Origin: Promethearchaeota archaeon
Lineage (GTDB): Archaea > Asgardarchaeota > Lokiarchaeia > Sigyniarchaeales > SOKP01
Reading direction: 5' to 3'
NCBI GenBank assembly: GCA_030599585.1
Contig: JAUVNS010000010.1
Location: 96,001 to 160,000 of the forward strand
DNA length: 64,000 nucleotides
Position 1 is the stretch's first letter. Every line of letters begins with the position of its first letter. Of this stretch, positions 23,853-60,598 are shown piece by piece. Below the pieces are notes generated by a model. The model searched no databases. It was not told the origin of the DNA and saw only the letters and a list, made by a program, of their open reading frames with translations. The position numbers and the translations under genes were made by a program.

Positions 23853-23929
23853 AAATCAATTTAAATGATCAGAAAGAATTTTAAAATCGGGGAAATTATC
23901 TTACTAACTCCTTTCCCCTCTAAACCTAT

Positions 23930-30300: not shown

Positions 30301-30379
30301 ATTTATATCTTATTATGTAAAACAGTAAAAATGATAGTGTTTTATCATTTCCTAAAAAAAATAATAGGTCGATGTAACT

Positions 30380-33300
30380 ATGCTTGAGCTAGAAAATGTA
30401 ATAAATAATTCTAAGAAGAAATTAGGATCATTAAGGGAAAAATTAATCGGAGATAATAACCAAGGTAGAGATAATTCAAATATAATTAATGATCTTGATG
30501 AAATCATATCTGAACTAACAGCGTCTTTAGACTCAAAAATTGAAGATCAAGATGTAACAGAGCAAAAACAAATTCAAATGGAATTACATGAAAGTGAAAG
30601 CCTTCTCAAAAATGCTCAAGAATTAGCACATATTAGTCATTGGAAGCTTGATCCTTCAACTATGGAGGTGTCTGGTTCTGATGAGTTATTCAAAATTTTT
30701 GGTCTTACTCACGATGAGGCGACACTTGAACAATTTGCTGAGGTTGTTCACCCCGACGATAGAGAAATGGACTTGTATCATATAAGAAGAGGTATGGAAA
30801 AAGGTGAAAGTTGGGATATTGAACATCGGGTGATCTCTAAGGACGGTACAGAAAAGTGGGTACACGCTTTAGGTGAAGCAATCAAAGATGATGACGGTAA
30901 AATCATCATGTTGATGGGCACTGTACAGGATATTACAGAGCGCAGAAAAATAATGGAAGAGCTTCGTATAAAAGATCTAGTTTTCAATGCTTCTCTTTCT
31001 GCTCAAAGTACAGCAGATATAAATGGAATAATTGATTTTGTAAACCCCGCATTTTTAGAACTGTGGGGTTATAAATCAAAAGAAGAAGCAATTGGGGGTT
31101 CAGTTGGTAGTTTTTTTGCTAATCCTGACGATGCAGTTCCTATCCTTAAAGTACTTACTGAGACGGGGAAGTGGGAAGGCGAATTTTTAGCGAAAAGATG
31201 TGATGGTTCGACATTTCTTTCACAAGGGTTTGCTTCAACCATGTATAATGAAAATGGTGACCAGATTGGATTTCAATCAATAAATCTTAATATTACAAAA
31301 CGCAAAGAAGTTGAACAAAAACTAAAAGAATCCGAAGAAAAATTTAGATTATTATTTGAATCTATTGCGGACCCTATCCATGTCATTGATGCAGATTTAA
31401 AGATTATTTATTTTAATCCCGCTTTTGAAAGATGGTTAAAATCATTTAACTTGGATTTAAATATTATTGGAAGAACTCCCGTTGAAGCATGGCCCTTTAT
31501 TGGAGAGAGGGTATATGGTGAATACCAAGAAATCTTTAAAACTAAAAAAATACACATTAAAGAAGATTGGGCCCATTTTAATGATATTCATACCTTTACC
31601 GAAACTAGAAAAATACCCATTCTTAAGTCTGGGAATGTTTTTCAAGTAATTACTATTATAAGAGATTTTTCTGAGCGAAAAAAAGCTGAACAAAAGTTAA
31701 AAGAATCGGAAGAAAATTTTCGAAAACAAAATGTATTTCTTAACAATATTTTAGAATCCCTCACGCATCCGCTCTATGTTATAAATGTTAAGGATTATAC
31801 AATAGCATTAGCTAATTCTACCGCTTCTTCTGAAGGTTTAGAACATGGGCAATATTGTTATAACCTTACTCATAATAGTAATAAGCCATGTGAAGCTCCT
31901 TGTATATGTCCACTTAATGTAGTGAAAAATACTAAAAAAGTTTGCGTAGTAGAACATAAACATTACGATCAAGAGGGAAATGAGAAAACTTATGAAATCT
32001 ATGGATATCCAATTCTAAATGAGAACGGAAATGTCGTCCAAATGATAGAATACGCATTAAACATTACCGATCGCAAGATAGCACAACAGGAATTAAAAGA
32101 ATCCGAAAGAAAATATCGTGGATTCGTGAATAATATTTCAGATATTATATTTGAAATTGATATAAAAGGTAAATGTTCATATGTTAGTCATCAATTGTTT
32201 GATATTTCGGGATTTTTTCCAGAGGAAATGGTCGGTCAAAATGTTTTTAAATTTGTGCATCCCGATGATCTATTTGGGGTCGCTGAGGAGGTTAAAATAG
32301 CCTTTAATTCCGAGGATAATCGCTATATTGAGTTCAGATTGCGACATAAAGACGGTCATTATGTTTCAGTATCTTCTAGGTTTAGTACGACAATAATAGG
32401 AGAAAAACGAAAACTCACGGGAGTTCTCGTGAATATGACAGAAAGAAAGAAAGCAAACCAAAAATTAAAAGAGTCAGAGGAATTCTTTAGAACAATTACC
32501 GAACAATCTCTTTTAGGAGTAATAATAATACAAGATAGAATTATAAAATACGTCAATGACATCGCTCTAAATTATTCTGGTTATTCTAGAGATGAAGTTA
32601 TAAATTTGCCTGAAACCCAAATATTGAAATTTATCTACACTGAAGATCGAGATATAATTAACCAGACTTTAATTGATCCTAATCCTAATATGGTATTTAG
32701 AATAATAACTAAAGAGGGAAATACTAAATGGATTGATATTCATACTAAAACAATTTACTATAAAGGTAAAGAGGCATATTTATCTGCATTCTTAGATATA
32801 ACAGAAAAAAAAGAAGCAGAAAATCTTATTAAAGATGAAATCACAAAATTGAAAGAATTGGATGAACTTAAGAATGAGTTTGTTTATAGAGCGTCTCACG
32901 AATTAAAAACACCTTTAAATTCAATAGTGAGTGCATCCTCCTTATTAATTGATAGTTATCAAGATTTTTTCGATGAAAGAGTTTATGGACTAATAAATGT
33001 CATCAATAAAGGAGGAAAAATATTAGATGAATTAATTGGAGATTTACTGGATGTGTCGAGAATAGATTCAGAAAAATTAACGATTAAAAAAAAAAAAGAG
33101 AATATTGTGGAGATTATTAGAAATTGTACTCAAGAAATGATATTTTTGATTAATAAGCGTAATTTAAATATTGAATTTAAATATTTGGATAAGAAAATCT
33201 ATATGAAAATAGACAAGAAAAGATTCGAACAGGTTATTCTAAATATATTATCAAATTCAATTAAGAATACGCCATCTGAAGGAAGTATTTCATTCAATAT

Positions 33301-33562
33301 AAAATCAGAGAAGAAATTTATAGATATATCCATTACTGATACTGGAGTCGGCTTTACAAAGAAAGAGAAAGAGAAGTTATTCCAAAAGTTTGGAAAAATT
33401 GAAAGGCATGGTAAGGGAATGGACATTATATCAGAAGGAACAGGTTTAGGCTTATATATTTCAAAAGAAATTGTTGAATTACATGGGGGAGAAATTTGGG
33501 TTGAATCTAAAGGAAGAAACAAAGGATCTACTATTGTAATAAGATTACCATATAAAAAATAA
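30380..33562 (+). CDS. Cytoplasmic multi-PAS histidine kinase (~6 PAS/PAC)
   Basis: PAS repeats; SHELKTPL; DTGVG and GTGLGL. Confidence 0.95.
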   Translation: MLELENVINNSKKKLGSLREKLIGDNNQGRDNSNIINDLDEIISELTASLDSKIEDQDVTEQKQIQMELHESESLLKNAQELAHISHWKLDPSTMEVSGSDELFKIFGLTHDEATLEQFAEVVHPDDREMDLYHIRRGMEKGESWDIEHRVISKDGTEKWVHALGEAIKDDDGKIIMLMGTVQDITERRKIMEELRIKDLVFNASLSAQSTADINGIIDFVNPAFLELWGYKSKEEAIGGSVGSFFANPDDAVPILKVLTETGKWEGEFLAKRCDGSTFLSQGFASTMYNENGDQIGFQSINLNITKRKEVEQKLKESEEKFRLLFESIADPIHVIDADLKIIYFNPAFERWLKSFNLDLNIIGRTPVEAWPFIGERVYGEYQEIFKTKKIHIKEDWAHFNDIHTFTETRKIPILKSGNVFQVITIIRDFSERKKAEQKLKESEENFRKQNVFLNNILESLTHPLYVINVKDYTIALANSTASSEGLEHGQYCYNLTHNSNKPCEAPCICPLNVVKNTKKVCVVEHKHYDQEGNEKTYEIYGYPILNENGNVVQMIEYALNITDRKIAQQELKESERKYRGFVNNISDIIFEIDIKGKCSYVSHQLFDISGFFPEEMVGQNVFKFVHPDDLFGVAEEVKIAFNSEDNRYIEFRLRHKDGHYVSVSSRFSTTIIGEKRKLTGVLVNMTERKKANQKLKESEEFFRTITEQSLLGVIIIQDRIIKYVNDIALNYSGYSRDEVINLPETQILKFIYTEDRDIINQTLIDPNPNMVFRIITKEGNTKWIDIHTKTIYYKGKEAYLSAFLDITEKKEAENLIKDEITKLKELDELKNEFVYRASHELKTPLNSIVSASSLLIDSYQDFFDERVYGLINVINKGGKILDELIGDLLDVSRIDSEKLTIKKKKENIVEIIRNCTQEMIFLINKRNLNIEFKYLDKKIYMKIDKKRFEQVILNILSNSIKNTPSEGSISFNIKSEKKFIDISITDTGVGFTKKEKEKLFQKFGKIERHGKGMDIISEGTGLGLYISKEIVELHGGEIWVESKGRNKGSTIVIRLPYKK

Positions 33563-33569
33563 ACTTAAA

Positions 33570-34274
33570 TTAGTTAAGATACTCAAAAAGATGGTTAAAG
33601 TCGGTAAAATTAAAGGGCTTACGCAAATATCCTTCTGCTCCTGTATCTTCAATTCTTTTACTAACTTCAGATTCAGGAATTGCTGTAATATAAAAAATTG
33701 GAATCCCCTTTAATTTATCATTTAATTTGATTTGTTTGCATATTTCATATCCGCTAATATCTGGCAAAATAATATCTAATAGGATTATGCTTGGGGCTGA
33801 TCTGTTTAATTCTTCTAAACCTTTTTTACCAGTTGTCACTCCGATGGATGAGAATCCCTTAATATCAAAATAATCTGTTAAAACCATAATTGTAGATGTA
33901 TCATCTTCAATGATCAATACATCATAAGACATAGTTTCCGGCTCAATTTCACCTATAATGTCATTAATTTTATTTTCAAGGAATATGCTTTTACTATAGA
34001 TTTCTTTTATTCTCAATAACATATTTGGATCTAATTTCTCAGCTTCATTTTCAAGAATTAGTTGTGAAAAACCTTTAATTGAAGTTAATGGCTCCTTTAA
34101 ATCATGAGTAAATTTAGATATATTATCAATAAGACTAATTCTAGATTTAGAACCAATATAAAAATTCACAGCTTTCCTAATTAGCATAGAAATTGTTGTA
34201 AATTCATTATCGTCAACAAAAGTTTGCCAATTAGTTTTGGTTTCTTCTGAAACGAGAATACCGATTCTTTTCAT
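33570..34274 (-). CDS. RHH-like + HisKA + receiver domain protein
   Basis: N-terminal KRIGILVS...ISMLIRKAV; THDLKEPLTSIKGF; REC with EDD, LLDIILP, ITA, KP; no HATPase. Confidence 0.8.
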   Translation of the reverse strand: MKRIGILVSEETKTNWQTFVDDNEFTTISMLIRKAVNFYIGSKSRISLIDNISKFTHDLKEPLTSIKGFSQLILENEAEKLDPNMLLRIKEIYSKSIFLENKINDIIGEIEPETMSYDVLIIEDDTSTIMVLTDYFDIKGFSSIGVTTGKKGLEELNRSAPSIILLDIILPDISGYEICKQIKLNDKLKGIPIFYITAIPESEVSKRIEDTGAEGYLRKPFNFTDFNHLFEYLN

Positions 34275-34364
34275 GTCGTCTGTTTTTTTATCATTCTTAG
34301 AAATTATTATCTCACTTCCTAAGGTATCCGTATTTATATAATTCTTTTTCTTAATTAAAAAGTT

Positions 34365-35327
34365 TCACAATAGATTTGAAATGCAACTCGTAAATAGCTC
34401 ATCTACACCCTCACCAGTAAAAGCTGAAGTTTCGTAATATGAAAAGTTATTGCGATAAGATAAATCTAATGCACTACTCTGAATCGATTCTCTATCATTT
34501 ATTAAATCGATTTTATTCCCTACTAAGTAGTAATTAGTTTGGGGGGTTTTTATAAAATTTCTCGCCTCTTCAATCCATTCATTTATATTTTCAAGAGTAG
34601 TAAGTTTCGAGTAATCGAATAAAATAATCACAACTTTAGCATCTTGATAATAATGCTTTCGAACTTTTTTAAAACTCTTAAGACCACCCATATCAAATAT
34701 CTGGAAATCTATACTCATATTTTTAGTGATTTCAAAAGATCTTTTGTTAACTGAAAGCCCTATTGTAGGTATATAGTTATTTCCAGTTTTACCTTTAAGA
34801 TACATATCAACTAAAGATGTTTTTCCTACTGAATCTGATCCAATTATGACAATTTTGTTAGGCTTTGAAAATGAAGAGGAATGATCATCAAAAATAATAT
34901 TACCATTTCCATTAATTTTTGGAAGCTCAATTGATGTTTCTATATTATTCAAAATATTAGATGCCTTTTCAGCAACGAGGTAGGAATATGGAATGAAATC
35001 ATTCAAATTAGAATATGGATCTGTAACCATAACAAACAATCCCTGATTATTTATACCCATTTCAACATAAAACAATTGATATTCATTCATATGAATAGTT
35101 CCACTCCCTAAAGAGATCTCTGCGTATTTCTTCATTTTTTCCAGGTTTTCTTCCACAATACTAATAATGACCTCAAAAATTTCTTCTTTGAATCCTTTAT
35201 TTGATTGTTGAGCCATTATCAGGCCATTTGAATCAACAATAAGAACTGCTATAAGATCCTTTATTTCTTTAACCAAATTATTTAGCAATTCGTTTAGTAA
35301 ATTCGTTTTTGACACAATTACAGACAT
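34365..35327 (-). CDS. Roadblock/LC7 domain fused to Rab/Ras-like small GTPase
   Basis: LIAVLIVDSNGLIMA roadblock start; G1 GSDSVGKTS, G2 PTIG, G3 DMGG, G4 NKID, G5 ETSA. Confidence 0.9.
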   Translation of the reverse strand: MSVIVSKTNLLNELLNNLVKEIKDLIAVLIVDSNGLIMAQQSNKGFKEEIFEVIISIVEENLEKMKKYAEISLGSGTIHMNEYQLFYVEMGINNQGLFVMVTDPYSNLNDFIPYSYLVAEKASNILNNIETSIELPKINGNGNIIFDDHSSSFSKPNKIVIIGSDSVGKTSLVDMYLKGKTGNNYIPTIGLSVNKRSFEITKNMSIDFQIFDMGGLKSFKKVRKHYYQDAKVVIILFDYSKLTTLENINEWIEEARNFIKTPQTNYYLVGNKIDLINDRESIQSSALDLSYRNNFSYYETSAFTGEGVDELFTSCISNLL

Positions 35328-35365
35328 GATCCTTAACCTATGTAATGTTTTTGTTATATTAATTA

Positions 35366-36019
35366 TTAATTAACAGCTATTTCTAATTTTTCAAAAAATT
35401 TATCAAGAGTCTCAACTGAGGGAATAAAACAAAAGGTTCCGTAGAAATCTAAATCTTCAATAATCAACTTTGTTTTAATCAGTAACATAAAATCTAAATT
35501 TTCTGAACACATTGCTAAAAACTCATTAATTATTGCTCCTAATTTATCGAAAGCTAAGATGGGAACATCTGGAATATATTTAGTAGATAACAAGTTAGCA
35601 AGTGCACTAGTATAATGCCCTGCTAAAATATTACCAATTTCTACAATTAAACTGATAGTATATTCATCAAAATCATCTAAATTTGTTATCTCAACTCTCT
35701 TCTGTTTATTTTGTTCTGATAAAATGTCTATTAAATTGAAGATACTTTTTTTTGTGAAAATTTGTAAAATATTAAGATTAGTTTCCGCTTTAACGATTGA
35801 ATTTATTCCAAATACATCTGTATTAGAGCCCCCCAATTTATCACTTAATTTCCAAATGGGAATAATCTCGGCCGAAGTTAGAGAAACTTCTATTCTTTTG
35901 TCTAATAATTGCGATAAAGCGGTTATTGCATTACCGGATCCAATATTCCCAATCTCCATTAGAGTATCAATTTGGTATTGAGTCAATCGAAAATTTTCTT
36001 CTTCAGAATATCTTAACAT
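35366..36019 (-). CDS. cheC: CheY-P phosphatase CheC
   Basis: Two ExGN motifs (EIGNIGSGNA, EIGNILAG). Confidence 0.92.
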   Translation of the reverse strand: MLRYSEEENFRLTQYQIDTLMEIGNIGSGNAITALSQLLDKRIEVSLTSAEIIPIWKLSDKLGGSNTDVFGINSIVKAETNLNILQIFTKKSIFNLIDILSEQNKQKRVEITNLDDFDEYTISLIVEIGNILAGHYTSALANLLSTKYIPDVPILAFDKLGAIINEFLAMCSENLDFMLLIKTKLIIEDLDFYGTFCFIPSVETLDKFFEKLEIAVN

Positions 36020-36118
36020 TTCTTAAAAATCCCTCATCTTTTATCACTAATTGTTAATTTTTTAAGCTCATTAATTGAGTGTGATTATTTCAATCTTTTT
36101 TTTAATTAAACATTATTT

Positions 36119-36724
36119 TTATAATAATTTTCTATAATATTCCTCGCCTGTTGGTTTCACATAAACGCTATTATCTTTTGTATCATAAATGATAATTCTA
36201 CCTCTTTTACCGCCGATATCTTTTCTAATAATCCTAATCTTAAGTCGTTCTAATTCAGATTTAACTACTTTTATGTTTTCTGCACCAATATCATTAAAAT
36301 GGTTTTGAAAAATTTTTGATCCCCCAACCATAACAGCTTTTATATTTTGACTTTCAGCTCCCTGATTAATCATATTTTTTACTAGATCCTTTACAGAACA
36401 GTCAGCAAATTTATGTGGACGTTTTATTTTTATATTATCCTTTATGTGATCTGAATGAGGGAGTAATATGTGAGACATTGCATAAATTTTATTTTGTAAA
36501 TCATAAAGAATTAACGCTATGCATGAACCTAACCCATATATTATTATTTTCGTTTGACTTATATACAATTTTGAATCAGAATTAATCAAAACATAATGAG
36601 CTATATGTAAAACTATCTCTCCTTTTCTATCTCCTTCAGTGATACAATCATTACGGTTTATGGAAGCAATTCCAATATTATTACTAAAAGATATCAGTTC
36701 ATTAGACATAGCTTTAATTTCCAT
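36119..36724 (-). CDS. cheD: Chemoreceptor glutamine deamidase CheD
   Basis: GLGSCIA, SHILLP, KFAD, IGAEN, DIGG..GR motifs. Confidence 0.92.
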   Translation of the reverse strand: MEIKAMSNELISFSNNIGIASINRNDCITEGDRKGEIVLHIAHYVLINSDSKLYISQTKIIIYGLGSCIALILYDLQNKIYAMSHILLPHSDHIKDNIKIKRPHKFADCSVKDLVKNMINQGAESQNIKAVMVGGSKIFQNHFNDIGAENIKVVKSELERLKIRIIRKDIGGKRGRIIIYDTKDNSVYVKPTGEEYYRKLL

Positions 36725-37859
36725 ATTTTTTATCGAATTTTAATATGTAATTTTTAATCATACTATTTGGAGTTATAATTTGTGCTGCCCCACTTTCAGC
36801 AGCTACTTTTGGCATACCGTACACGATGCTCGTTTCTTTCGACTCTGCTATGGTCAAACCACCTTTTGATTTAATAGCTTTTAATCCTGCAACCCCATCA
36901 TTTCCTATACCTGTTAAAATGATACCTAATGCACGTTTTTTGAAAACTCGAGCTGCTGAAAAGAACAAAGGATCTGCCGAAGGTATACAATAATTTATTG
37001 GTTGTCCATCAAATGTTCTTATATAGGGTTTATTATTTTTAACTACAATTTCCGTGTGTTTTCCCCCTGGAGCGAGATAAACAATTCCGGAATTAATTTT
37101 TTCTCCATTTTTAGCTAATGTTACATCCAAATCAGTGTAATCATTTAAGGATTCAGCTAATTGTACCATAAATTGTTCATTCAAATGTTGGACAATTAAA
37201 ATCGGACTGTTTATTCCTTTTGGAATTTGGCTCAAAATTAATCTTAAAGTTTTAGGACCTCCAACACTAGTAGCAATAACAATAATATTAAATTTAAATT
37301 TGTCAATATCGACTTTATTTACTTTTTCCATACCAACTTTATCAAATGGTGGAATTTTTGGTTTTTGAACATAAGCTTTAATTTTTTCAGATTTTTGCTG
37401 ATTCTGATTCTTAAGTGAGGCATCGGGAAAATCCTTAATTGCTTTAGATTTATCTATCTTCTTGGATTTAGAAGCAAGTAGTACTTTTGAAATTAGTTCT
37501 TCTTTAAATTTTGGAAGTTCCACCTTCCAGACACCTCCTGGTTTAATAATATAATCAAAAGCTCCTAAGAGTAGTGCTTGAACAGATGCATCTAAAGTAA
37601 TTGGGTCTAATACTGAAAAGACAATTGTAGGTATGGGATAAATTTTCATGATTTGCTTAAAAGCTGCTAATCCATCCATCCTAGGCATTAAAATGTCAAG
37701 AAGTAGTACATCAGGCTTGAATTCTATCACTTTTTCAACTGCTTCTATACCATCTCGTGCTACATATACCACTTCAATCTCTTCATGCTCTGACAGCATT
37801 TCTGAGATGATTTTCCTCTGAAATGATGAATCATCTGCTATTAATACTTTTACAGTCAT
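36714..37859 (-). CDS. cheB: Chemotaxis methylesterase CheB (REC + esterase)
   Basis: N-terminal REC; TSVGG, VQH and LTGIGNDG catalytic motifs. Confidence 0.95.
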   Translation of the reverse strand: MTVKVLIADDSSFQRKIISEMLSEHEEIEVVYVARDGIEAVEKVIEFKPDVLLLDILMPRMDGLAAFKQIMKIYPIPTIVFSVLDPITLDASVQALLLGAFDYIIKPGGVWKVELPKFKEELISKVLLASKSKKIDKSKAIKDFPDASLKNQNQQKSEKIKAYVQKPKIPPFDKVGMEKVNKVDIDKFKFNIIVIATSVGGPKTLRLILSQIPKGINSPILIVQHLNEQFMVQLAESLNDYTDLDVTLAKNGEKINSGIVYLAPGGKHTEIVVKNNKPYIRTFDGQPINYCIPSADPLFFSAARVFKKRALGIILTGIGNDGVAGLKAIKSKGGLTIAESKETSIVYGMPKVAAESGAAQIITPNSMIKNYILKFDKKYGN

Positions 37860-37875
37860 AATCTAACAAAATTGG

Positions 37876-38919
37876 TTATCTAATCTTTAAATATATATGA
37901 TTTCGGGCATCTACTAATTTGAAATTACTGTAATTATTAAAAAGGGTCTCAGTTTTACCCAAAATTAGTAACCCCCCTAATTCTAAATGTCTATCGATTA
38001 TTTTAAGGAAACTATCACGATTTTCTCTATTAAAATATATTAAAAGATAACGACATAATATGATATCATATTTCCATCTATTCTGATGCCCTTTTGTTAT
38101 ATCTTCACAGAAAAAATCTACTTTTCTTTTAATGTCCTCAGTTAAAATATATTTATTTCCAAAATATTCATTTTCCTTACTAAAATATCTTTTTTCGAAG
38201 TACTTTGAAGTCTCTTTAACTGAATCATCATTATATACGGCTTTGTGTGCTTTATCAATTGCCAACTTATCTATATCAGAAGCAACAATTTTGTATTGAG
38301 GGAATGATTTAATTTGTTTTTCAAGATTATTCAGAATCATAGCTATCGTATAAGGCTCTTCACCAGTAGCACATGGACAGGACCATATTTTAATTGATTT
38401 ATTATTTAATTTAGGATTGTTTATTTTTTTATAGAGTGATGTCTCTTTTACGTAATATTTATTTTGTACAAGGTAACGATTTGAGTTTAACCTTTTGCTT
38501 GAAATTCCTTTAATTGAAGACTTGTTAACTTTTTCCTTATTTTTTTGTTCATTTTTGTTCTTTTTTTTTATTTTTGATGGATCGGGTTTAAAATCATAAA
38601 ATAAAGTATTATTTCTAGAATTAAAACACTCAATAAATATATTATTTAATCGTTCAAACAAATCCCAGTTTCTAAAGAAGTAAGTATAATTTATACTAAA
38701 TCGATTAAAAAAAATTTCTAATTCTTTCGGATTAGAATTTATATAACTGTAATACTCTTCTATTGATTTGCATTTTACGCGTATCATTCTAGCTTTTATC
38801 CTCCTTTCAATAAAATTTCTTCTGTAATAGTCGAAATTTAATTTTGTCTCTTGATGTAATAAGCTAATTAACTTCTTATAGGGATTTTCCTTTATTTTTA
38901 TTTGATCAAATGTTAGTAT
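37876..38919 (-). CDS. cheR: Chemotaxis methyltransferase CheR (start extended beyond ORF-track ATG 38787)
   Basis: INYTYFFR, IWSCPCATGEEPY, ASDID, DIILCRYLLIYF. The open frame upstream of 38787 encodes the CheR N-domain (KLNFDYYRRNFIERRIKARM); exact start uncertain. Confidence 0.88.
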   Translation of the reverse strand: MLTFDQIKIKENPYKKLISLLHQETKLNFDYYRRNFIERRIKARMIRVKCKSIEEYYSYINSNPKELEIFFNRFSINYTYFFRNWDLFERLNNIFIECFNSRNNTLFYDFKPDPSKIKKKNKNEQKNKEKVNKSSIKGISSKRLNSNRYLVQNKYYVKETSLYKKINNPKLNNKSIKIWSCPCATGEEPYTIAMILNNLEKQIKSFPQYKIVASDIDKLAIDKAHKAVYNDDSVKETSKYFEKRYFSKENEYFGNKYILTEDIKRKVDFFCEDITKGHQNRWKYDIILCRYLLIYFNRENRDSFLKIIDRHLELGGLLILGKTETLFNNYSNFKLVDARNHIYLKIR

Positions 38920-38930
38920 TTTCGATCACC

Positions 38931-39467
38931 TTAACTTTCGAGTATTTTATCAATCCTAACAATTCTTCTTTCAATATGTTCGAATGAATATTTTATATGT
39001 AATTGAATCTCTCTTATTTCTGATATTATCTTCTTAATTTGAGATTTCTCAGATTTTGATAACCTAAATTCTGCTTGATTGTTATAAATTTTATTTAATG
39101 GAGTTCTATCCTTCAAGATCTGCTCCTTAACCATACTCTTTCTTGATTGCCCTGGATAATCTAAATCTTGATTCCTATCGTTAATTTCTTCTAAAATAGT
39201 TTTGAAGTCTTCAGGCTCATGATTTTGTTTAATTACTTCATATTTAAATTTATAAAAATCTTTCTTACTCTTTAATTTTCCCGCCCAGTTTGCCGCAATA
39301 TATCGATGGAATAAGCGAGAATTACGACCGGCCCATATCCAGATAAGGTTTAAGTTTTTATCTATAACTAAATAAACACCATCATCCCCAAAAAGTTGAT
39401 CAGGTGCTTTTGTCAAAGTCTCTCCAATAACTTGATAAGTGGAATCATAATAACTGGATTTTACCAT
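38931..39467 (-). CDS. Single gelsolin-like domain protein with C-terminal coiled coil
   Basis: DDGVYLVID...IWIWAGRNS...IAANWA...VIKQNHEPEDF follows the gelsolin-repeat consensus (GDVFILD..IYVWVG..S...A......V.EG.EP..F). Confidence 0.75.
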   Translation of the reverse strand: MVKSSYYDSTYQVIGETLTKAPDQLFGDDGVYLVIDKNLNLIWIWAGRNSRLFHRYIAANWAGKLKSKKDFYKFKYEVIKQNHEPEDFKTILEEINDRNQDLDYPGQSRKSMVKEQILKDRTPLNKIYNNQAEFRLSKSEKSQIKKIISEIREIQLHIKYSFEHIERRIVRIDKILES

Positions 39468-39598
39468 TATTTTTACCTCCTTTAGCCAAATATCTTCTCT
39501 TGAATAAATTTTATTTATTACTATTTTGATCGTCTAAACTATAAAAAAAAATTTAGAAAGATAATTATTCATCATGGGACCTTATCTTTATTATTGCT

Positions 39599-41524
39599 TT
39601 AAGCATAAAACTCTAATAAAGCATCCAATAACTCTTGTAATGTGTCGATATTTGGAATATATAAGAATGTCCCAGTTACTTTGAAATCTGTTATAATAAC
39701 ATTCGTAGTAATTACTAAAGAGAGTTTCTTAAGCAATCCAATTTCATCTCTTAAAATACTGAACAGCTGTTTCCCTGTATCAAGGTGTATATCAGGGGGG
39801 TCTGTCATTAACCGTATTCCTAATAAGTCACCAATTGCGCTAATATAATTACTTCCGAGAATATGACCTAATTCACTCATAGCACTGCGATAAAGCTCAG
39901 GAAAGTCATCAACTGTCTTAAATTTCTTTCGTAAGTCAATTTGTGTTTTCTTTTTATCATCAACGATAATTGATGTTAAATCTATCATATCTTTAACGCT
40001 AAAAATTGTAAGAACCGTTGCTTTAGTTTTTCCTGTGACGTTACTCCAAGCGACTAAGAGTTTATCAGTTGCTCGACTTAGTGTATCAGCATACTTATCT
40101 AATTCAACCATTTCTACCGAAGGTATATTAATAACTACTCTTTGATTTACCATTTGAGCTAGAGCATTAGCGGCATTCCCTGCTCCAATATTTCCTATTT
40201 CTTGTAATGCATCTCTCTGAAGCTCTGTTAATTTGATTGATTCCAAATTAAGCGATAAATCAGTTGTTGCTTCATCATTCGGTGCCTTAAATGTGACTCC
40301 TAATTTTCTGAACATCCCTTCCAGAGTTCCTTTGTCAGGTATAAAGAAAAACACTCCTGTTAGCTTAAAATCACTTATTTTTATCGTGGTTTTAATTAAT
40401 ACTACATATTTCGATATCGATTGCAATTCTTTACCTAAAAATTCTCCTAATAATCCAGAATCACTCATAGCAAATTCCGGAATGTCTATCATCATTTTAG
40501 TACCCGTTAAATCAGCTAGTGCAGATACATAATGACCAGCCATAATGTTTCCCATCTCAGTTATAGTAGATATAGCAAACGAATCAAGGTCCTCTTTGGA
40601 ATTGATTTTTTCAGGATCAAATTTAGAGTCATCACCAGTTAAATTAGCAACTAATTTCAATAGCGGCTTCATTTCAAAGATGTTAAGAATCGTTGATTGA
40701 GAAGGTTTATTGACATGGCAAAATATTCCACAAACCTTTTCACTAGATCCTTGAAACTGTTCTGATAATTTATCGCTGGAAATAATCCCTACATCTGTAA
40801 GTTGAACATCGATTTTTTTCTTTATTAAAACAGATAAAGCGGTCACAGCATTACCTACACCAATATTTCCAATTTCTTGTAAAGTATCAAGTTGATATTC
40901 ACTTAGTTCGTACTCCTTTTTCGGAGTTGGGCTTTTAGCTTTTTTATGGAGAACAACATTTTGAGATTTCGATTTTTTCTCCTTTATTTTCTTCGGGAGT
41001 ATTCCAGGTTGAGAAAGCGCTTTTGGAATCTTCTCTTGTTTTTTAAGCTGTTTAATTTTCAAGTTAGATAAATACCATTCGATAAGTGAATCTAAATCTA
41101 ATAAGATTAATGGTTGATCATTTAGCGTTCCAATCAATTTTACTAGATCCAGGTCTAAGTTTGTTTTTACAATTGTACTGTTTTGTCTAAAATTTCCTAA
41201 AGAAAATTTCTTAACACCATGGACATCATCCACTAATAAACCTAAATTTAAACCTTTATACTCTAATAGAAGTATTCTAGAATTTTCGGATAAATTATAT
41301 TCCGTTTTATTTCCATATATTATATGCCTTAGAGATAATACTGTATACACTGTACCCCTAATATCAATTATTCCTAATACTGATTCTTCAGCTAAAGGTA
41401 TTGGAATAATTTCATTATTTGGAACATAAATTTCTTTAACATTTTCTACTTCAAGTAAATATTGTTCATTTTGAACCTCTATTACTACTGAAGTGATACT
41501 ATTCATATTTTCAGCTTCCATCAT
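39599..41524 (-). CDS. CheW-CheC-CheC fusion protein
   Basis: N-terminal CheW (LGIIDIRG, GLLVDDV); Lys/Pro linker; two CheC domains (EIGNIG/EMGNIM, EIGNIG/ELGHIL). Confidence 0.9.
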   Translation of the reverse strand: MMEAENMNSITSVVIEVQNEQYLLEVENVKEIYVPNNEIIPIPLAEESVLGIIDIRGTVYTVLSLRHIIYGNKTEYNLSENSRILLLEYKGLNLGLLVDDVHGVKKFSLGNFRQNSTIVKTNLDLDLVKLIGTLNDQPLILLDLDSLIEWYLSNLKIKQLKKQEKIPKALSQPGILPKKIKEKKSKSQNVVLHKKAKSPTPKKEYELSEYQLDTLQEIGNIGVGNAVTALSVLIKKKIDVQLTDVGIISSDKLSEQFQGSSEKVCGIFCHVNKPSQSTILNIFEMKPLLKLVANLTGDDSKFDPEKINSKEDLDSFAISTITEMGNIMAGHYVSALADLTGTKMMIDIPEFAMSDSGLLGEFLGKELQSISKYVVLIKTTIKISDFKLTGVFFFIPDKGTLEGMFRKLGVTFKAPNDEATTDLSLNLESIKLTELQRDALQEIGNIGAGNAANALAQMVNQRVVINIPSVEMVELDKYADTLSRATDKLLVAWSNVTGKTKATVLTIFSVKDMIDLTSIIVDDKKKTQIDLRKKFKTVDDFPELYRSAMSELGHILGSNYISAIGDLLGIRLMTDPPDIHLDTGKQLFSILRDEIGLLKKLSLVITTNVIITDFKVTGTFLYIPNIDTLQELLDALLEFYA

Positions 41525-41544
41525 TATTTTTCATTCTCCTATTA

Positions 41545-42390
41545 TTATTTATTTTCTTTTAACATAATTCCTTTCCAAATAAGCTCAACTTCTTGTTCTT
41601 CGCCACTTATTTCCGAGAGGTAATTTTGCTGGACAAATATTGAAATTTGACCTCCATCCGAGTACTCATAAACGTAATCAAGTACATCATCTATAGATGT
41701 AAAATTAAAACCAGCAATTTTCAGCTCTGAACTACCAACTAACAATAAATCCTCACCATTAAAAGGACGGTCTTCATCATTCCATTCAACCCAAATTTCA
41801 GAAGCAATTTCAAGATCGTTTATAACTAAATCCTTTTCCAGGGGGATATTACGATAAGTCTTATAAGCAGCAAAAATAATTCGATTTGGAACTTTTCCCG
41901 TCTTTTTAAAGTATTTTTTTATAGCTTGTACCCCAGAATTAAAATTATTTAAATCAAGAATATCATAACAGACGACATAGGTCAATTCACCATCTTCCAT
42001 CTCTATAACGAAGTCCAAATTATCATTAGATTCATTGGAAATATTAACCTGGAAATTCTCAATTATAAATCCTTGAACATATTTAAAATATTGATAAAAT
42101 CGCCATTTTACCCCAAAATTTGAATTATCTTCTCTGCTGATAAAAATCTGATATAAAGATTTTAGTTGAGATGCTTTTAGGCTTTTTAAGTCATCAATCG
42201 TGTCATAGTCGTCACCAATATTTTTTAAGTTCATTCTTGCTGATTGTTTCTTTTTAGTAGGTTTACTTGAAAGTTCATCCAAAAAGATTTTAAGTTCTCC
42301 TTTTGTAAATGACGGTTTAATTTGGCTTACCAAATAATTTAAATATTTATCCGATTTATCTTGTAAAGTTTCATAATATTGAAAATTCAT
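41545..42390 (-). CDS. Hypothetical protein, possible degenerate PD-(D/E)xK fold
   Basis: 281 aa ORF with GGAG SD inside the operon; LDFVIE...TYVVC pattern. Confidence 0.55.
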   Translation of the reverse strand: MNFQYYETLQDKSDKYLNYLVSQIKPSFTKGELKIFLDELSSKPTKKKQSARMNLKNIGDDYDTIDDLKSLKASQLKSLYQIFISREDNSNFGVKWRFYQYFKYVQGFIIENFQVNISNESNDNLDFVIEMEDGELTYVVCYDILDLNNFNSGVQAIKKYFKKTGKVPNRIIFAAYKTYRNIPLEKDLVINDLEIASEIWVEWNDEDRPFNGEDLLLVGSSELKIAGFNFTSIDDVLDYVYEYSDGGQISIFVQQNYLSEISGEEQEVELIWKGIMLKENK

Positions 42391-42427
42391 TTAATCTCCT
42401 CTTTTTTTATTTATTTTTTTTTTGTTA

Positions 42428-44464
42428 TTATCCATAAAAGTAGGATTCTAATTCCGTAAAATTTACATCCTTTCCATCAATAGTCTTCAAATAATACATT
42501 ATTTCCATTTCCTGATAAGGCGTTATATTTGGAATAGTGAAATTTATCGTTTGATCGTGATTATCACTAGATTTAGTCATTTTATGTTCTATGTTTGATG
42601 ATATAAGCTTAAAGGATTCTGGAATTGTATCTGATATATCAATGTCTTTAATGAAGGCATTTGATTTGTTTTTGATTATAATATTTATTGCAAATTCATC
42701 ACTACTTCTACCTGGAAATATTTCTTTTCCAATCATGACGTTTCGGCGTTTATGTGAAATGTTTAAGGAAGGAATCGCATCTCTATCCAAATTTTCTTTT
42801 ATAACATGATATTCTTTAATCCCTTCATTAGCACTTTCCTGGTATTTAGGAAAATATGCATTAATTTCTAATGGAAAATCATATGATTTCTCGTTATCCG
42901 GTGAAATTGCCCTTAACGGATATTGAATCTCTAAAGTATCATTTTTTTCCAATGAATATTTAAGATTATTTTGAGATAGATTAACTTCAAGCTCTAATAC
43001 ATGCGTCATAGAAGGATCATCATTGTTGGGGGTTATATTTACAGTATATGAATCGGGGGTAATTGTTCCAGAATTATTAGTCAAAGTATAACTTGTATTA
43101 TCCATGGGAAGTAGAAAATCTTCAGGTACTACTTCTTTTACTACAACAGCATGCATAGGAATTGAACTGTTGTTTTTAATAAAGATTTTATTGGTAATCA
43201 CTGATTTTTCGAAAGATTTAATCTCGGTTTCTGGAATAAGTTTTTCTATTTTAAAATCAACTACTTCATAAACTTCATCAGCAAAATAGGTTTTTATTGT
43301 TGAATTTTTCTTAAAATTATAATTTACTGAATATTCGATTTTTCTAAAGAAGGATGGTTCAATTTCATCCTCTGTTTCCCATTCGTCTGTCTGATAGTTT
43401 TCGCCAGAATTTATTAGCGTTTTATTATTTGAAGTTTTAAAGTCTAAGTTTAAATATTCTTCTGTTTTGGATTTATCTGTAATTAGAATTGTTCTTAAAT
43501 CTAATGAATAATCACTGTGATTTTCAAAAATTAAGGAACATTTCCAATGATTGGGTCTGTTATTAACTTCTGATTTGTTAATTGCATGAAAGGCATGAGA
43601 GAAAGCCGTAAATTTATTGACATTAACCTCTGAAAATACATTATCTTTAACTTTAAATGAAGTTTCTATAATTCCCGTTCTAATTTTTTGATTTTTTTTA
43701 GGCATTACTTTAATCGAAAATTGTATAATTGCGTTTTCTCCTGGATGTAATTTATTCACTGAGCATTCAATAGAATTTCTTCCTATAACTAAGTTCTTAG
43801 ATGTTTGATCAGATACTTGAAAATCGTAAAAATCCTTGAAAATAGCTTTTCTAAATTCAATCTCTTCTATAATTGATGTACTAATATTTCTAATTACAAT
43901 AGTATACCTTATTAGATTCTCTCTACCTGATAATAGAATATTAGTTCTCTTTAAATGTAAGGTTTTTATGTCCTCCTCAGAGTTTTCAAATTCAGTTTTA
44001 ATCGATTCTAATTTATCATTCAATATCTCAATTTCTTCATCAATACGTATCAAATCTGAGATCTCCTCAGTATTAATAAGATCAAATTTAATATTTTTAC
44101 TAGTTTTAGGTTCAAAAATTCCTAGAACAACTTCATTCTCCTCTCCTATACTCGTTTGTTTAGAACCAGAAAATTCTAAGCGCGTATCCCAGATTCGATC
44201 CTTATTAGAGTTGTTGTTAACTGATAAATTGCCATATCCATGGAGAGATTTTCGAGATCTGTTGTAGTTATATTGAAAATCTAGCACCTCTTCATTTACA
44301 ATTGAAATTTCAGAAACTTTTTTGACAGACTCCGTATATATCTCTTGGGTGCTTCTATCGTCATATAGATCTCTTGAATGGGCTGTTTGAGATAAAGATA
44401 ATCCGATTAAATTAAATCCGGACTTAGTTTTCAATTCATCGTGTTTAATTTTTTTAAATCCCAT
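42428..44464 (-). CDS. Cytoplasmic all-beta protein: mu-homology-like N-half plus Ig-like (DUF11-like) domains
   Basis: Repeated IxIxN...I.D.IP..F sandwich motifs; no signal peptide or TM. Confidence 0.6.
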   Translation of the reverse strand: MGFKKIKHDELKTKSGFNLIGLSLSQTAHSRDLYDDRSTQEIYTESVKKVSEISIVNEEVLDFQYNYNRSRKSLHGYGNLSVNNNSNKDRIWDTRLEFSGSKQTSIGEENEVVLGIFEPKTSKNIKFDLINTEEISDLIRIDEEIEILNDKLESIKTEFENSEEDIKTLHLKRTNILLSGRENLIRYTIVIRNISTSIIEEIEFRKAIFKDFYDFQVSDQTSKNLVIGRNSIECSVNKLHPGENAIIQFSIKVMPKKNQKIRTGIIETSFKVKDNVFSEVNVNKFTAFSHAFHAINKSEVNNRPNHWKCSLIFENHSDYSLDLRTILITDKSKTEEYLNLDFKTSNNKTLINSGENYQTDEWETEDEIEPSFFRKIEYSVNYNFKKNSTIKTYFADEVYEVVDFKIEKLIPETEIKSFEKSVITNKIFIKNNSSIPMHAVVVKEVVPEDFLLPMDNTSYTLTNNSGTITPDSYTVNITPNNDDPSMTHVLELEVNLSQNNLKYSLEKNDTLEIQYPLRAISPDNEKSYDFPLEINAYFPKYQESANEGIKEYHVIKENLDRDAIPSLNISHKRRNVMIGKEIFPGRSSDEFAINIIIKNKSNAFIKDIDISDTIPESFKLISSNIEHKMTKSSDNHDQTINFTIPNITPYQEMEIMYYLKTIDGKDVNFTELESYFYG

Positions 44465-44527
44465 TATTTTTTTCCTCTTTTTTATATTTATTTGTGAATT
44501 TGCTCTTTTTTGGTTAAAAAAATCTAT

Positions 44528-46624
44528 TTAAAATTTAAATGTTCGAATTTCATTTGTTTTTGAAGTTATAATTGTTAATACATCGAGAATTAAGCAGACA
44601 GAGCCATCATCTAAAATAGTTGAACCCAATATATCTCTTGAATCAGAATAATTAGACTTAAATGGCTTGACAACAATATCTGTTTGTTGCATTATATCAT
44701 CGACTATAAAAACTGCTGAATTCATATCATCCTTTTTACATAAAATTGCAACTTTAGATTTTGAATGTAATCTCAAATCTTCGTTCGTAGCATCTTTAAA
44801 TTGAAAATGTTGCTCTAATTGGATTGCAGGAATTAACTTTGAATTAAATTTGTAATAAAGAGTATTTTCTACATATTCTGCCTTTTCTTGTTTAAATTGA
44901 AATATTGTTTCTATGTATTCTATTGGAATAGCAAATAGCTCTCCTGCTACACGAAGTAATTGTGCTTTAAGGATTGCTCTAGAAAAAGGCACTATTAAAG
45001 TGAAAGTAGTCCCAGCATCCTTTTCTGAATGAATTTTTAGAGATCCACCTAATTCTCTTATTTTTTCTACTACAATCGCTAGCCCTATTCCTCTACCTGA
45101 AATCAAATTAGCTCCTGAAAGAGTAGAAAAATTAGGTTGAAGAATATACTGGTTTAAAACATTCGTATTTAAATGCTCTACTTCTTCTTTTAAAAATAAG
45201 CCTTTTTGTACAAGAACATCCTTAACACGATCATAATCAATCCCTTGTCCATCATCTGTTACTTCGATATATATTGATCCAGCACTCCTGTATGTCTTCA
45301 GTCGTAATAATCCTATTTGATTTTTAGTTTTCTTCATCCTTAATTCAGGAGATTCAATTCCATGATAAACAGCATTTCTAAGAAGGTGAACTAATGGGGA
45401 ATTTAGCTCCTCTAAGATTTTTCTATCAATTTCAACATTAGTACCTTCTAAAATAAATCTTATTTTTTTCCCTGTTTCTTTTGCTACATCGCGTATTAAT
45501 CTTTTATACTTAACAAACGTTGTCTCAACTCTTACAAGTTTTAATCCAAAGATTAATTCTTGAATATCCAAGAATGGTTTCTCCATATTGCTAACAATGG
45601 CACCTAAAACTCTATCTTGTCTTTCTTTTAGAGTCCTTGTTATTTGATTCTTTAAAATTACAATTTCTCCAAAATAATTCATTAATTTTTCAAGAATATC
45701 GACATCAACTTTTACACTAGAAATCTTAGTCCCTTCATCTGAATAATCTTCAAATGCATGCGAACTTGTTTCAATTTCACCATCAATGAATTCATCATCA
45801 TCCTCACTTTCAACATGATATGACTCTCTGCTACGCTTAGTTGCTTTTTTTTCCAATATTCGCGTCCATTTTAAGTCAAATTCGTTAAGTAATCCTTCAA
45901 ATTCCTTATTTTCTAGTTTGTTAATTGCTTTATTTTCAATCTCTAAAATTTCATTTAAGATTTTTACTATTTCTTTATCTGTTGAGTGGCTAATATAATA
46001 TATCTCAAAATCATTAATGATTTCACCTTGTTCTAATGATTCTGGATCAGGGACACCCCAACATATCTGACCTTTTTCAGTCAAAGCCCTAAAAATAATA
46101 AAAAGTCGAACTTTCTTAAAGGCACATGTAGATTGAAGGCGAATATATACTTTATAAAATTTATTTGATTTGTCACCTAAAATAGCACTAAATTTGTTCG
46201 GTTGTATATGTTTTATAAAAGACATTTCTGAACTACTATCAAATGAGTCAAAACTGTCTCTTAAATCAAGTAGTAAGCTCGGATCTATGTCAGTCATATC
46301 ACCATTTTTAACATTATTTAGAACACTACGAAGAACTTCAAGGCTTTCAAAAAGCATATTAATAATCGAATCACTCAAATCGACTGAATCTTGATTATCT
46401 TTTATGCTTTGTAAAAAACTCTCAAAGTAATGGCAAAATTTAGAAGTATTATTAAAACCTGCCATTGCTGTTAATCCTTTTAAGGTATGAAAGGTGTAAA
46501 AAAGATTTTGAATTGGCTTCAACGCTTTTGGATTTTGTTCAATTTTCAATATTTCTCCTTCTGTTTGCAGGATGAGATCTTCTGTCTCACTTACAAAGAG
46601 CTTCATATCGTCTTGAGATATCAA
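44528..46624 (-). CDS. cheA: Chemotaxis histidine kinase CheA
   Basis: HPt FHTLKG; P2; HLLRNAVYHGIE; DDGQG; SGRGIGL; C-terminal CheW domain. Confidence 0.97.
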   Translation of the reverse strand: MISQDDMKLFVSETEDLILQTEGEILKIEQNPKALKPIQNLFYTFHTLKGLTAMAGFNNTSKFCHYFESFLQSIKDNQDSVDLSDSIINMLFESLEVLRSVLNNVKNGDMTDIDPSLLLDLRDSFDSFDSSSEMSFIKHIQPNKFSAILGDKSNKFYKVYIRLQSTCAFKKVRLFIIFRALTEKGQICWGVPDPESLEQGEIINDFEIYYISHSTDKEIVKILNEILEIENKAINKLENKEFEGLLNEFDLKWTRILEKKATKRSRESYHVESEDDDEFIDGEIETSSHAFEDYSDEGTKISSVKVDVDILEKLMNYFGEIVILKNQITRTLKERQDRVLGAIVSNMEKPFLDIQELIFGLKLVRVETTFVKYKRLIRDVAKETGKKIRFILEGTNVEIDRKILEELNSPLVHLLRNAVYHGIESPELRMKKTKNQIGLLRLKTYRSAGSIYIEVTDDGQGIDYDRVKDVLVQKGLFLKEEVEHLNTNVLNQYILQPNFSTLSGANLISGRGIGLAIVVEKIRELGGSLKIHSEKDAGTTFTLIVPFSRAILKAQLLRVAGELFAIPIEYIETIFQFKQEKAEYVENTLYYKFNSKLIPAIQLEQHFQFKDATNEDLRLHSKSKVAILCKKDDMNSAVFIVDDIMQQTDIVVKPFKSNYSDSRDILGSTILDDGSVCLILDVLTIITSKTNEIRTFKF

Positions 46625-46668
46625 ATTATCACCTTCACCTATTTCCTTCTTATTTTTATTTTATTTTT

Positions 46669-47046
46669 TTATTTTCCAGCAACTCTCTCTAAAACATCTT
46701 CGATTTGGTCTGCTTTAAAGGGTTTCTGAATAAAATCCTTTGCGCCCTTTTTAGCAGCTTCTAAAACTAACGCCTCTTGACCCAAGGCAGACACAATAAC
46801 AATAATTGCATCGGGATCGAAACTTAAAATTTTCTCTGTAGTTTCTATACCTCCTTGTTCAGGCATAACTAAATCCATTGTTACTAAGTCAGGCTTGAGC
46901 TCTTGATACAAAGAAACTGCTTCAACACCGTTTCTAGCTTCTGCGATAACTTCACCAATTTCTGTTTTATTGATGATCTTCTTCAACATATTTCGTGTAA
47001 ATTGGGCGTCGTCAACTACCAAAATTTTCTTTTTATTTTTTGTCAT
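46669..47046 (-). CDS. cheY: Response regulator CheY
   Basis: VDDAQFTR, TMDLVMP, SALGQ, KPF; adjacent to cheA. Confidence 0.95.
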   Translation of the reverse strand: MTKNKKKILVVDDAQFTRNMLKKIINKTEIGEVIAEARNGVEAVSLYQELKPDLVTMDLVMPEQGGIETTEKILSFDPDAIIVIVSALGQEALVLEAAKKGAKDFIQKPFKADQIEDVLERVAGK

Positions 47047-47595
47047 TTAATCAACTCTTTTTTTTTGCATTTTTATTTCTTCTTTTTTAATTGAAATATA
47101 GTCAATTTCATTAAGCAAATTGCTTAAATCAAGTAAAATTCTAGGTCTATCCTTGAATTTTATTATACCTTTAATATTTTCCATACCCACACTTGTTTGG
47201 AATATTGGACTCAATCCCACAATATTTTCTGCATTGACATGAGCAATACTAACAATTTGATCAGCAAAAAACCCGATAAAAACTCCAGCTATATCCAAAA
47301 TAATAATATATTTCTTTTTCCTCTTAGTTTTTACTTTAGATAAAGCGAGTTTTGATTTATATAAATAATTCTCGTGTAAATTTAGAACTTTTTCAAGGTT
47401 TAATATGTGAATTATTTCTCCTCGATAATTGTAGATGCCATCGATGAAATCAAGGCTCTTCGGTAGTTTTCTAATTTGACCCGATCTTACAATTTCTTTT
47501 ATTGTGGAAAGTTCAATTGCAAATTCTTCTAAACCAATTTCAAAAATTATAACCGATTTTTTTTCTAATTCATTTTTTATTTGTTCTTGATACAT
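47047..47595 (-). CDS. cheW: Coupling protein CheW
   Basis: EEFAIEL..IKEI, LPKSLDFIDGIYNYRGEII, ILLDL. Confidence 0.92.
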   Translation of the reverse strand: MYQEQIKNELEKKSVIIFEIGLEEFAIELSTIKEIVRSGQIRKLPKSLDFIDGIYNYRGEIIHILNLEKVLNLHENYLYKSKLALSKVKTKRKKKYIIILDIAGVFIGFFADQIVSIAHVNAENIVGLSPIFQTSVGMENIKGIIKFKDRPRILLDLSNLLNEIDYISIKKEEIKMQKKRVD

Positions 47596-47615
47596 TTTTT
47601 CTCACATCTATTTTT

Positions 47616-48464
47616 TTAAATTTCAAAATACAAATCAATTTTTTTTTTAAATTTATGGAAAGGTGCTATATCTCCGGTAAAATCAATTAGATGCTCCTTG
47701 TACTGTTCAAGGAAATCATCAGCTATTAGATACATGTATCTTTTGATTAATGAATTCAGGTTTTCAACCAAAAAAGCAAAAATAACATTCTTTTTTGTTA
47801 TCATATAAAAACGTTGATTACCGAAGTTAATTTCTTTCAGTTCTGCCCCGGATTCTTGTCCGATGATTTCTTTTGAAAATGAAAATAGCGCAGATATAAA
47901 CCCTCCAATGTGAACTTCCTTATTTGATATAAGTTTTCTGTTTTGATTGATTTTTGAAATATAAGGGCATCCATTTGCCCCTATTATGAACACACCAATA
48001 ATTCCCTTTGTTTGGGGTATTGATATTGTCTTGTTACACGTATTAATTACTTCAGAAATAGGTGTATTTAACCGTATTTGGTTTGTTATTTTTCTTGTAA
48101 AAAAATATAATTTTGGAAAATTAATAGTATGATCTTTCTCTGTCATATAGAGAATTACAATAGTATTATTATTATGTTGGAAATAATGAATAAAAATTGA
48201 AAAATCATCTAAAGGAATTATCGAATTCCCCTGCTTTTGATTATTAATTTCTTTCTTGCACAGTTCAATTACATTTTGTATAAGTGGTGTTCCTATTCCT
48301 TTTTGAAATAATACGTGAATTTTATCATTGTTATTAAATTCAGAAATTTTTATTAACCCATATCCGAGCATCTGCAAAATTTCTTTTGATTCTATTGTAT
48401 CCAAATGATTATTCATTTGAATTTTTCTATTTTGATGTTTTTCCATAACAATCATTAAATTCAC
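47616..48464 (-). CDS. Longin-like domain protein (probably two tandem domains)
   Basis: C-half VFIIGANGCPY...GGFISALFSFSKE...LKEINFG...FAFLV...F.EQY is the longin-type pattern; start uncertain (GTG 48464 or a later ATG). Confidence 0.7.
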   Translation of the reverse strand: MNLMIVMEKHQNRKIQMNNHLDTIESKEILQMLGYGLIKISEFNNNDKIHVLFQKGIGTPLIQNVIELCKKEINNQKQGNSIIPLDDFSIFIHYFQHNNNTIVILYMTEKDHTINFPKLYFFTRKITNQIRLNTPISEVINTCNKTISIPQTKGIIGVFIIGANGCPYISKINQNRKLISNKEVHIGGFISALFSFSKEIIGQESGAELKEINFGNQRFYMITKKNVIFAFLVENLNSLIKRYMYLIADDFLEQYKEHLIDFTGDIAPFHKFKKKIDLYFEI

Positions 48465-49912: not shown

Positions 49913-49915
49913 AAA

Positions 49916-60595: not shown

Positions 60596-60598
60596 ATT

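Follow-up and report, generated by a model that had tools for sequence, protein, structure and literature searches.

A gelsolin-fold protein confined to an archaellum-less che operon of Lokiarchaeia, a candidate link between chemical sensing and actin

A 178-residue protein, hereafter GelCC, is encoded within a chemosensory (che) operon of a lokiarchaeial genome (assembly GCA_030599585.1), in a stretch of 64,000 nucleotides of contig JAUVNS010000010.1 that is referred to below as the window. GelCC contains one domain with the gelsolin/cofilin fold, which is of the type seen in Asgard ProGel and has no gelsolin Ca2+ ligands, and it belongs exclusively, and at a fixed position, to a che operon that is not accompanied by an archaellum. 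Homology and gene context suggest that GelCC may bind or regulate actin and may receive a signal from CheY-P. The reading preferred here, to which we assign a probability of roughly 45%, is that GelCC serves a lokiarchaeial Che pathway lacking both archaellum and pilus as its dedicated accessory subunit, and that it works by a predicted Che-to-actin mechanism.

The GelCC coding sequence occupies positions 38931-39467 of the window on the reverse strand (178 aa plus the stop, from the list of open reading frames and its translation), and the stop codon lies at 38931-38933. Direct reading of the sequence places a Shine-Dalgarno-like GGAGGT motif at 39475-39480 on the same strand, 7 nt 5' of the ATG, and the N-terminus of GelCC is common to all orthologues in the alignment. 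At least 170 relatives, 172-193 aa in length, were obtained from a search of 5.8 billion clustered proteins, and all of those listed are unnamed “hypothetical” proteins from Asgard MAGs. A HMMER search of 1.84 billion representatives gave 24 matches at E <= 1e-10, and a weak search for fused or longer forms of 313-2000 aa found none at E <= 0.001. The gene is also intact, with no indels, in independent metagenome contigs from other studies. One of these contigs, X2 (1536 bases, corresponding to 38435-39970), differs from the window by 30 substitutions and 0 gaps; seven of the 12 substitutions listed inside GelCC are synonymous, and the nonsynonymous changes fall in the linker in four cases out of five, the fifth being N40K in a loop. 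A search for RNA over positions 38000-41500 found none: the RNA run X24 gave no alignment, and run X20, labelled “RNA?”, is probably DNA and covers three short pieces.

The gelsolin/cofilin-fold domain comprises residues 6-98 (39174-39452, reverse strand), as delimited by an AF2 model, Foldseek, VIA-align and profile searches of the PDB. The AF2 model of GelCC (pLDDT 79) has the strand and helix order of gelsolin, with strands at residues 10-14, 17-20, 31-36, 41-46 and 75-80 and helices at 52-66 and 86-96, so that a central beta-sheet is sandwiched by one long and one short helix. When the single GelCC sequence was compared with the PDB, the top matches were Thor 2DGel3 (E 6.9e-4) and ProGel (E 3.9e-3); a family profile built from 38 sequences retrieved ProGel (7c2f_B) at E 2.9e-7, 2DGel3 at 1.8e-4, a Heimdall 2DGel at 2.6e-4 and villin at 1.5e-3. 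Foldseek placed ProGel first (E 2.7e-6, TM 0.71), and VIA-align, in which ProGel was again the best match, superposed 85 of the 88 residues of ProGel 7c2f_B on the model with an rmsd of 2.0 A (Z 12.2). All 50 structural neighbours listed are domains of gelsolin, villin, CapG, severin, adseverin or fragmin, and no Sec23/24 gelsolin-like domain is among them. The initial annotation had described a gelsolin-repeat pattern over approximately residues 20-95 and had proposed a Foldseek comparison with gelsolin as a check; both the profile and the structural comparisons bear this out. Two observations count against reading the domain as actin-binding. The match to Pfam Gelsolin (PF00626; residues 26-88, E 0.025, 14.8 bits) stays below the cut-off of 21, and identity to ProGel is just 22-24%.

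The DWG motif (D..W.G) of gelsolin domains is kept in GelCC. Residues D36, W45 and G47 are invariant in sets of 38 and of 30 GelCC sequences and align with their counterparts in CapG and 2DGel3. The ligands of type II Ca2+ sites are the Asp after a strand's conserved Gly and the Glu that starts the long helix, positions known from gelsolin G2 (D187 and E209). In an alignment with CapG these positions are occupied in GelCC by Val31 and His54, both of them (nearly) invariant, and for this reason GelCC is placed in the ProGel/1DGelX class, which is without Ca2+ sites. The most conserved segment of the protein is the long helix, residues 50-66 (39270-39320, reverse strand; S-R-L-F-H-R-Y-[IM]-A-A-N-W-A-G-K-L-K), with a mean column entropy of 0.27 bits as against 0.92 for the whole domain. 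Alignment to the long helices of ProGel and CapG identifies it as the counterpart of the helix with which gelsolin G1 and ProGel occupy the actin cleft, and it has L-F and A-x-K-L in common with the ProGel helix. Beyond the domain, conservation picks out a Y-P-G-Q-S-R motif at residues 104-109 (39141-39158, reverse strand), in which P105, G106, S108 and R109 are invariant across 30 species-level orthologues.

Residues 111-134 (39066-39137, reverse strand) form a variable linker that is predicted to be disordered from its pLDDT, which is below 50, and its entropy; it is the most variable segment of GelCC (2.84 bits) and differs in length between orthologues. The protein ends in a 40-residue heptad helix, residues 138-177 (38937-39056, reverse strand), modelled by AF2 as a single long helix with a pLDDT of 85-91. 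Across the 30 species-level orthologues of the conservation table, all five heptad “a” positions are Ile (I144, I151, I158, I165 and I172), the “d” positions being I147, I154, S161, R168 and I175. A second conserved stripe, polar in character, runs along the tail (E150, E153, H157, Y160 and H164). Such a pattern fits a predicted coiled coil that may also present a partner-binding face, and the linker and C-terminal coiled coil of about 40 aa that had been proposed from the letters of the DNA are both recovered.

How does GelCC compare with the gelsolins already described from Asgard archaea? These were defined as ProGel, 1DGelX and 2DGel (Akil et al., 2020; PMC7444086), and the single-domain gelsolins of Thor bind, sever or bundle actin (PMC7444086). 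ProGel (PDB 7C2F; PMC7444086) is, like GelCC, a single domain with a DWG motif and no Ca2+ sites. However, ProGel has some 90 aa and no tail, whereas GelCC adds the YPGQSR motif, the disordered linker and the 40-aa heptad helix, and is confined to che operons. Thor 1DGelX, in which a gelsolin domain is joined to a predicted coiled-coil domain X, binds rabbit actin with a Kd of 7.7 uM and has Ca2+-independent severing activity (PMC7444086). In both 1DGelX and GelCC a lone gelsolin domain precedes a C-terminal extension for which a coiled coil is predicted, a likeness at the level of architecture; the Thor protein is probably much larger than 178 aa because it ran near actin on gels. MK-D1 has two 1DGelX proteins and no che genes (PMC9433394; PMC9834061), and no che context is reported for 1DGelX, unlike GelCC.

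GelCC also has paralogues, and at least six other gelsolin-domain open reading frames are found elsewhere in its own genome. The GelCC profile aligns to the longer of these (309-402 aa) over the domain only. A non-che paralogue of 182 aa (e.g., L045:9846-10391) is like GelCC in length and in architecture, having a gelsolin domain, a linker and a C-terminal helix, and the two proteins both carry W43, W45, G47, S50, Y56, A58, A62 and K66. Nevertheless, they are only about 25% identical. The paralogue passes the Pfam Gelsolin cut-off (24.4 bits), below which GelCC falls, and it is without the L52-F53-H54 and N60-W61 residues and the E/H/Y stripe of the tail. The paralogue is found away from che genes, in a conserved run of genes (L045:8495-14893 and L044:6794-11619) for a roadblock-like protein, an unknown protein of 323 aa, the paralogue itself, a FIST sensor, LuxE and LuxC, and in L045 an LRR-Roc/Ras GTPase is encoded near this run.

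The che operon as a whole comprises fourteen genes (33570-48464, reverse strand), assigned with Pfam and conserved in order in other genomes. In order, these encode unk282, CheW, CheY, CheA, a DUF11/Ig-repeat protein, unk281, a CheW-CheC-CheC fusion, GelCC, CheR, CheB, CheD, CheC, a roadblock-Ras GTPase and a HisKA-REC protein. To follow synteny, 46 loci were compared with the proteins of the window by tblastn. The CheW-CheC-CheC gene (39599-41524, reverse strand; Pfam) lies directly upstream of GelCC, on the same strand, in all 34 loci that have upstream DNA, and this adjacency holds at GelCC identities of 44-57%. On its own 5' side is unk281 (41545-42390, reverse strand), which has no Pfam family and directly precedes the fusion gene in 33 of the 34 loci. 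The AF2 model of unk281 (pLDDT 76) gives weak matches to the PD-(D/E)xK nuclease-like folds of EcoO109I, NucS and Card1/Can2, and Foldseek against the PDB returns no match for it at E <= 0.001. The gene 3' of GelCC varies: among 36 species loci it encodes CheR (17), CheB (nine), CheD (three) or the roadblock-Ras GTPase (three), with nothing or a contig end in the remaining four. On the closed chromosome CP070831 (G230; L052 and L053) the operon is present as two halves, 1.08 Mb apart, with CheY-CheA-DUF11-unk281 at 0.36 Mb and CheW-CheC-CheC-GelCC-CheR-CheB-CheD-CheC-GTPase at 1.44 Mb. The break falls between unk281 and CheW-CheC-CheC, and GelCC remains with the fusion gene.

A sample of 201 genomes of the phylum yielded full-length GelCC orthologues in no family but that of the window, the other matches being paralogous gelsolin domains. 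Among 135 species genomes of the family, GelCC and CheA (PF02895) are both present in 39, CheA occurs without GelCC in four, and 92 have neither; every one of the 39 genomes with GelCC thus has CheA. The four genomes with CheA alone all have contigs that break off within the DUF11 gene or the CheW-CheC fusion, before the GelCC slot is reached. Across the 135 family genomes every GelCC orthologue found lies in a che operon, and absence of the gene was not demonstrated for any such operon. Within genera the presence of the pair is patchy (2/42 genomes in g1, 22-24/54 in g2 and 4/10 in g6), and GelCC and CheA always occur together. A locus in a different genus, L062 (G220:C224:789-1322), has CheW-CheC-CheC, GelCC and CheR that are 97% identical to those of the window, on a contig of 3.4 kb. 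Its host G220 is a 72%-complete MAG with two CheA matches, which suggests that this copy is either a mis-binned fragment or a recent transfer.

In most relatives the GelCC stop codon abuts or overlaps the start of the next gene, and in 15 orthologous loci the GTG or ATG that opens CheR is placed anywhere from overlap with the GelCC stop codon to about 40 nt after it. The cheR gene of the window (37876-38925, reverse strand) is made up of a canonical reading frame, 37876-38787 (Pfam CheR), and an in-frame upstream extension to 38925 that encodes the first CheR_N helices. Its frame is open from 38925, 5 nt beyond the GelCC stop codon. The initial annotation was accordingly correct in setting the gene between CheW-CheC-CheC and cheR and in giving a distance of about 10 bp between its stop and the extended cheR frame. 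No ATG, GTG or TTG was found in this frame from 38925 until 38787 is reached. The GTG at which the relatives' CheR starts (“VIRIDDIQ...”) is present at 38929-38927, out of frame, and the frame that it opens ends with a TGA at 38908-38906. The same odd 5' structure (38787-38930, reverse strand) is seen in L062, and the region has no indel in independent metagenome contigs; it could reflect a frameshift, a near-cognate start or recoding.

The che operon lies within a “chemosensory island” of 37.5 kb (17898-55390, with genes on both strands) that is precisely absent from three congeners. The remainder of the window (1-17897 and 55390-64000) is collinear with three same-genus genomes at 83-93% nucleotide identity, and the ~37.5 kb are identified as an accessory island because its flanks abut within ~10 bp in these genomes (G279:C147, G276:C33 and G071:C1). 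The left flank is the aEF-2 gene, and the right border is marked by a tRNA-Gly(CCC) gene (55396-55468, reverse strand; ARAGORN). Since the flanks are collinear and the che operon is present in 2/42 genomes of the window's genus, the contig is genuine core genome of that genus rather than a binning error, and the che system, GelCC included, is mobile or frequently lost. In G281, the only other congener that carries a che operon, the island seems to lie beside the same flank (80% nucleotide identity over 705 bases of flank). The GelCC of G281 is, however, 49% identical to that of the window, as if divergent versions of the island occupied one site.

Besides the che operon, the island contains three giant PAS kinases, a divergent TFIIB paralogue with REC, a CheR-CheD fusion and an MCP. 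The three PAS histidine kinases lie in tandem (19071-33562, forward strand) and are composed of repeated modules, each ~380 nt long; recurring blocks of as much as 300 nt are shared between the genes at 84-94% identity. The TFIIB paralogue is followed immediately by a stand-alone receiver domain (49031-50287, forward strand). This TFIIB (49031-49912) has no relative above 48% identity among the 135 family genomes and was uninformative as a marker of bin membership, which was decided instead by the synteny of the flanking DNA. No integrase-like gene was found at the left edge of the island, and a search for att sites found no repeat matching the tRNA border among the 20 largest direct-repeat families, which are mostly PAS-module repeats.

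If this pathway has no archaellum, what does it act upon? CheF (PF04283) was looked for in five che-positive GelCC genomes of 90-100% completeness and found in none, with controls matched in three archaea, and the same was true of archaellin (PF01917), for which the archaeal controls were matched. The T2SSF platform protein (PF00482) was not found in five che-positive genomes, the closed chromosome included, in a search that matched 13 of 14 controls. T2SSE (PF00437) gave weak, partial matches of 26-60 bits in each of the five genomes; these were not taken for a pilus or archaellum system, no T2SSF platform protein having been found.

CheF is the archaeal adaptor from CheY-P to the archaellum switch. 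Like GelCC, it is an accessory protein outside the Che core whose gene accompanies che genes, and it would link CheY-P to a motility or cytoskeletal apparatus as is proposed for GelCC; the analogy is one of function only, without homology. Complete Che cores with a non-rotary output and pathway-specific accessory proteins are also known from the Pil-Chp, Frz/Dif and Wsp systems, which act on type IV pili, polarity GTPases or c-di-GMP, and the lokiarchaeial operon would be a likewise arranged system. Among Asgard archaea, Lokiactin filaments and putative chemoreceptor arrays have been reported from L. ossiferum, along with a che gene set and eight gelsolin-like proteins, in a study that drew no link among them (Rodrigues-Oliveira et al., 2022; PMC9834061). 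The literature searched describes neither a gelsolin gene in a che operon nor a gelsolin-fold protein or actin output of any chemosensory pathway.

In the mechanism proposed here, the gelsolin domain would bind Lokiactin through its nearly invariant long helix, independently of Ca2+, in a contact analogous to those of ProGel, 2DGel D1 and gelsolin G1 in the cleft between actin subdomains 1 and 3. The C-terminal helix would dimerise and/or dock on a Che component, most likely the array-tethered CheW-CheC-CheC phosphatase, with CheY-P as the alternative partner. Local CheY-P around the chemoreceptor array could then be converted into local severing, capping or bundling of actin, and this output would bias the growth of protrusions in place of a rotary motor. 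GelCC had been called the most direct candidate effector at the outset. That is a reasonable choice, though not the sole one, as the operon has four other conserved non-Che genes (unk282, the DUF11/Ig-repeat protein, unk281 and the roadblock-Ras GTPase) that could equally be the output of the pathway.

The gelsolin fold might instead have been repurposed, so that a domain no longer binding actin serves as a protein-protein adaptor in the Che complex, with CheW-CheC-CheC, CheR/CheB/CheD, unk281 or CheY as its partner. The gelsolin-like domain of Sec23/24, for one, is not known to bind actin, and the sub-threshold Pfam score, the strict dependence of GelCC on che genes and the varying downstream neighbours, all of them adaptation enzymes, would be in keeping with such an adaptor. 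The residues of the long helix bear on this point from both sides. L52-F53-H54 and N60-W61 are a peculiarity of the che-linked orthogroup that the non-che paralogue does not share, and the invariant surface of the helix could therefore serve a che-specific partner; yet its extreme conservation would also suit Lokiactin as the partner, a protein itself 96-99% identical within the family. GelCC retains the DWG motif, and its closest relatives in sequence and structure are all bona fide actin-binding gelsolin domains, the top ones, Asgard ProGel and 2DGel, having been solved in complex with actin. A repurposed domain is a serious rival, though we regard it as rather unlikely.

A GelCC that does bind actin need not signal to it. 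It might be a structural tether that anchors or positions the array on Lokiactin via CheW-CheC-CheC, the true output lying elsewhere, e.g., with the roadblock-Ras GTPase, the HisKA-REC protein or gene expression. Bacterial arrays are positioned by dedicated proteins such as ParC/PpfA, a precedent for tethering that is joined by the constant adjacency of GelCC to the array-docking CheW fusion, a coiled-coil tail suited to scaffolding and the other candidate outputs held in the operon. The data fit a tethering role and an output role equally well. Characterised Asgard single-domain gelsolins, however, alter filament dynamics beyond mere binding (PMC7444086); the output effector role is favoured over an array tether, which we judge unlikely. 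Still less can be said for GelCC as a passenger, an ordinary actin regulator that is one of several gelsolin paralogues and has no functional tie to che. The other gelsolin-domain reading frames of the genome and the paralogue of the same architecture in an unrelated neighbourhood would be in keeping with this, but the distribution already speaks against it. Orthologues were found in che operons only, CheA is present in 39/39 genomes with GelCC, and the upstream adjacency (34/34) persists at 44-57% identity; moreover, the pair formed with CheW-CheC-CheC is kept when the operon is split, and the GelCC stop is closely coupled to the point at which the next gene starts. We consider a passenger gene very improbable.

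Some Asgard archaea have che genes and arrays without an archaellum, together with a dynamic eukaryote-like actin cytoskeleton, and GelCC is a concrete candidate for the protein that wires chemical sensing to this skeleton. Being inherited, lost and moved solely with the che operon, it offers a small, expressible handle on both Che output and actin regulation. Even if GelCC proved not to bind actin, it would still count as a new accessory subunit in a Che system that is unusual in itself. If it both binds actin and responds to a Che component, this would be the first prokaryotic two-component chemosensory pathway acting on actin, and a plausible evolutionary bridge from bacterial-style sensing to eukaryotic actin-driven directed growth or motility. 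The wider proposition is that the lokiarchaeial MCP-CheA-CheY pathway uses the actin cytoskeleton as its output, CheY-P controlling a gelsolin-fold severing or capping protein and so steering protrusions, with the level of CheY-P shaped locally by the array-tethered CheW-CheC-CheC phosphatase. We hold this to be possible, if doubtful; if true, a prokaryote would show chemotropism based on actin, and the mechanism would be a forerunner of that of eukaryotic chemotaxis.
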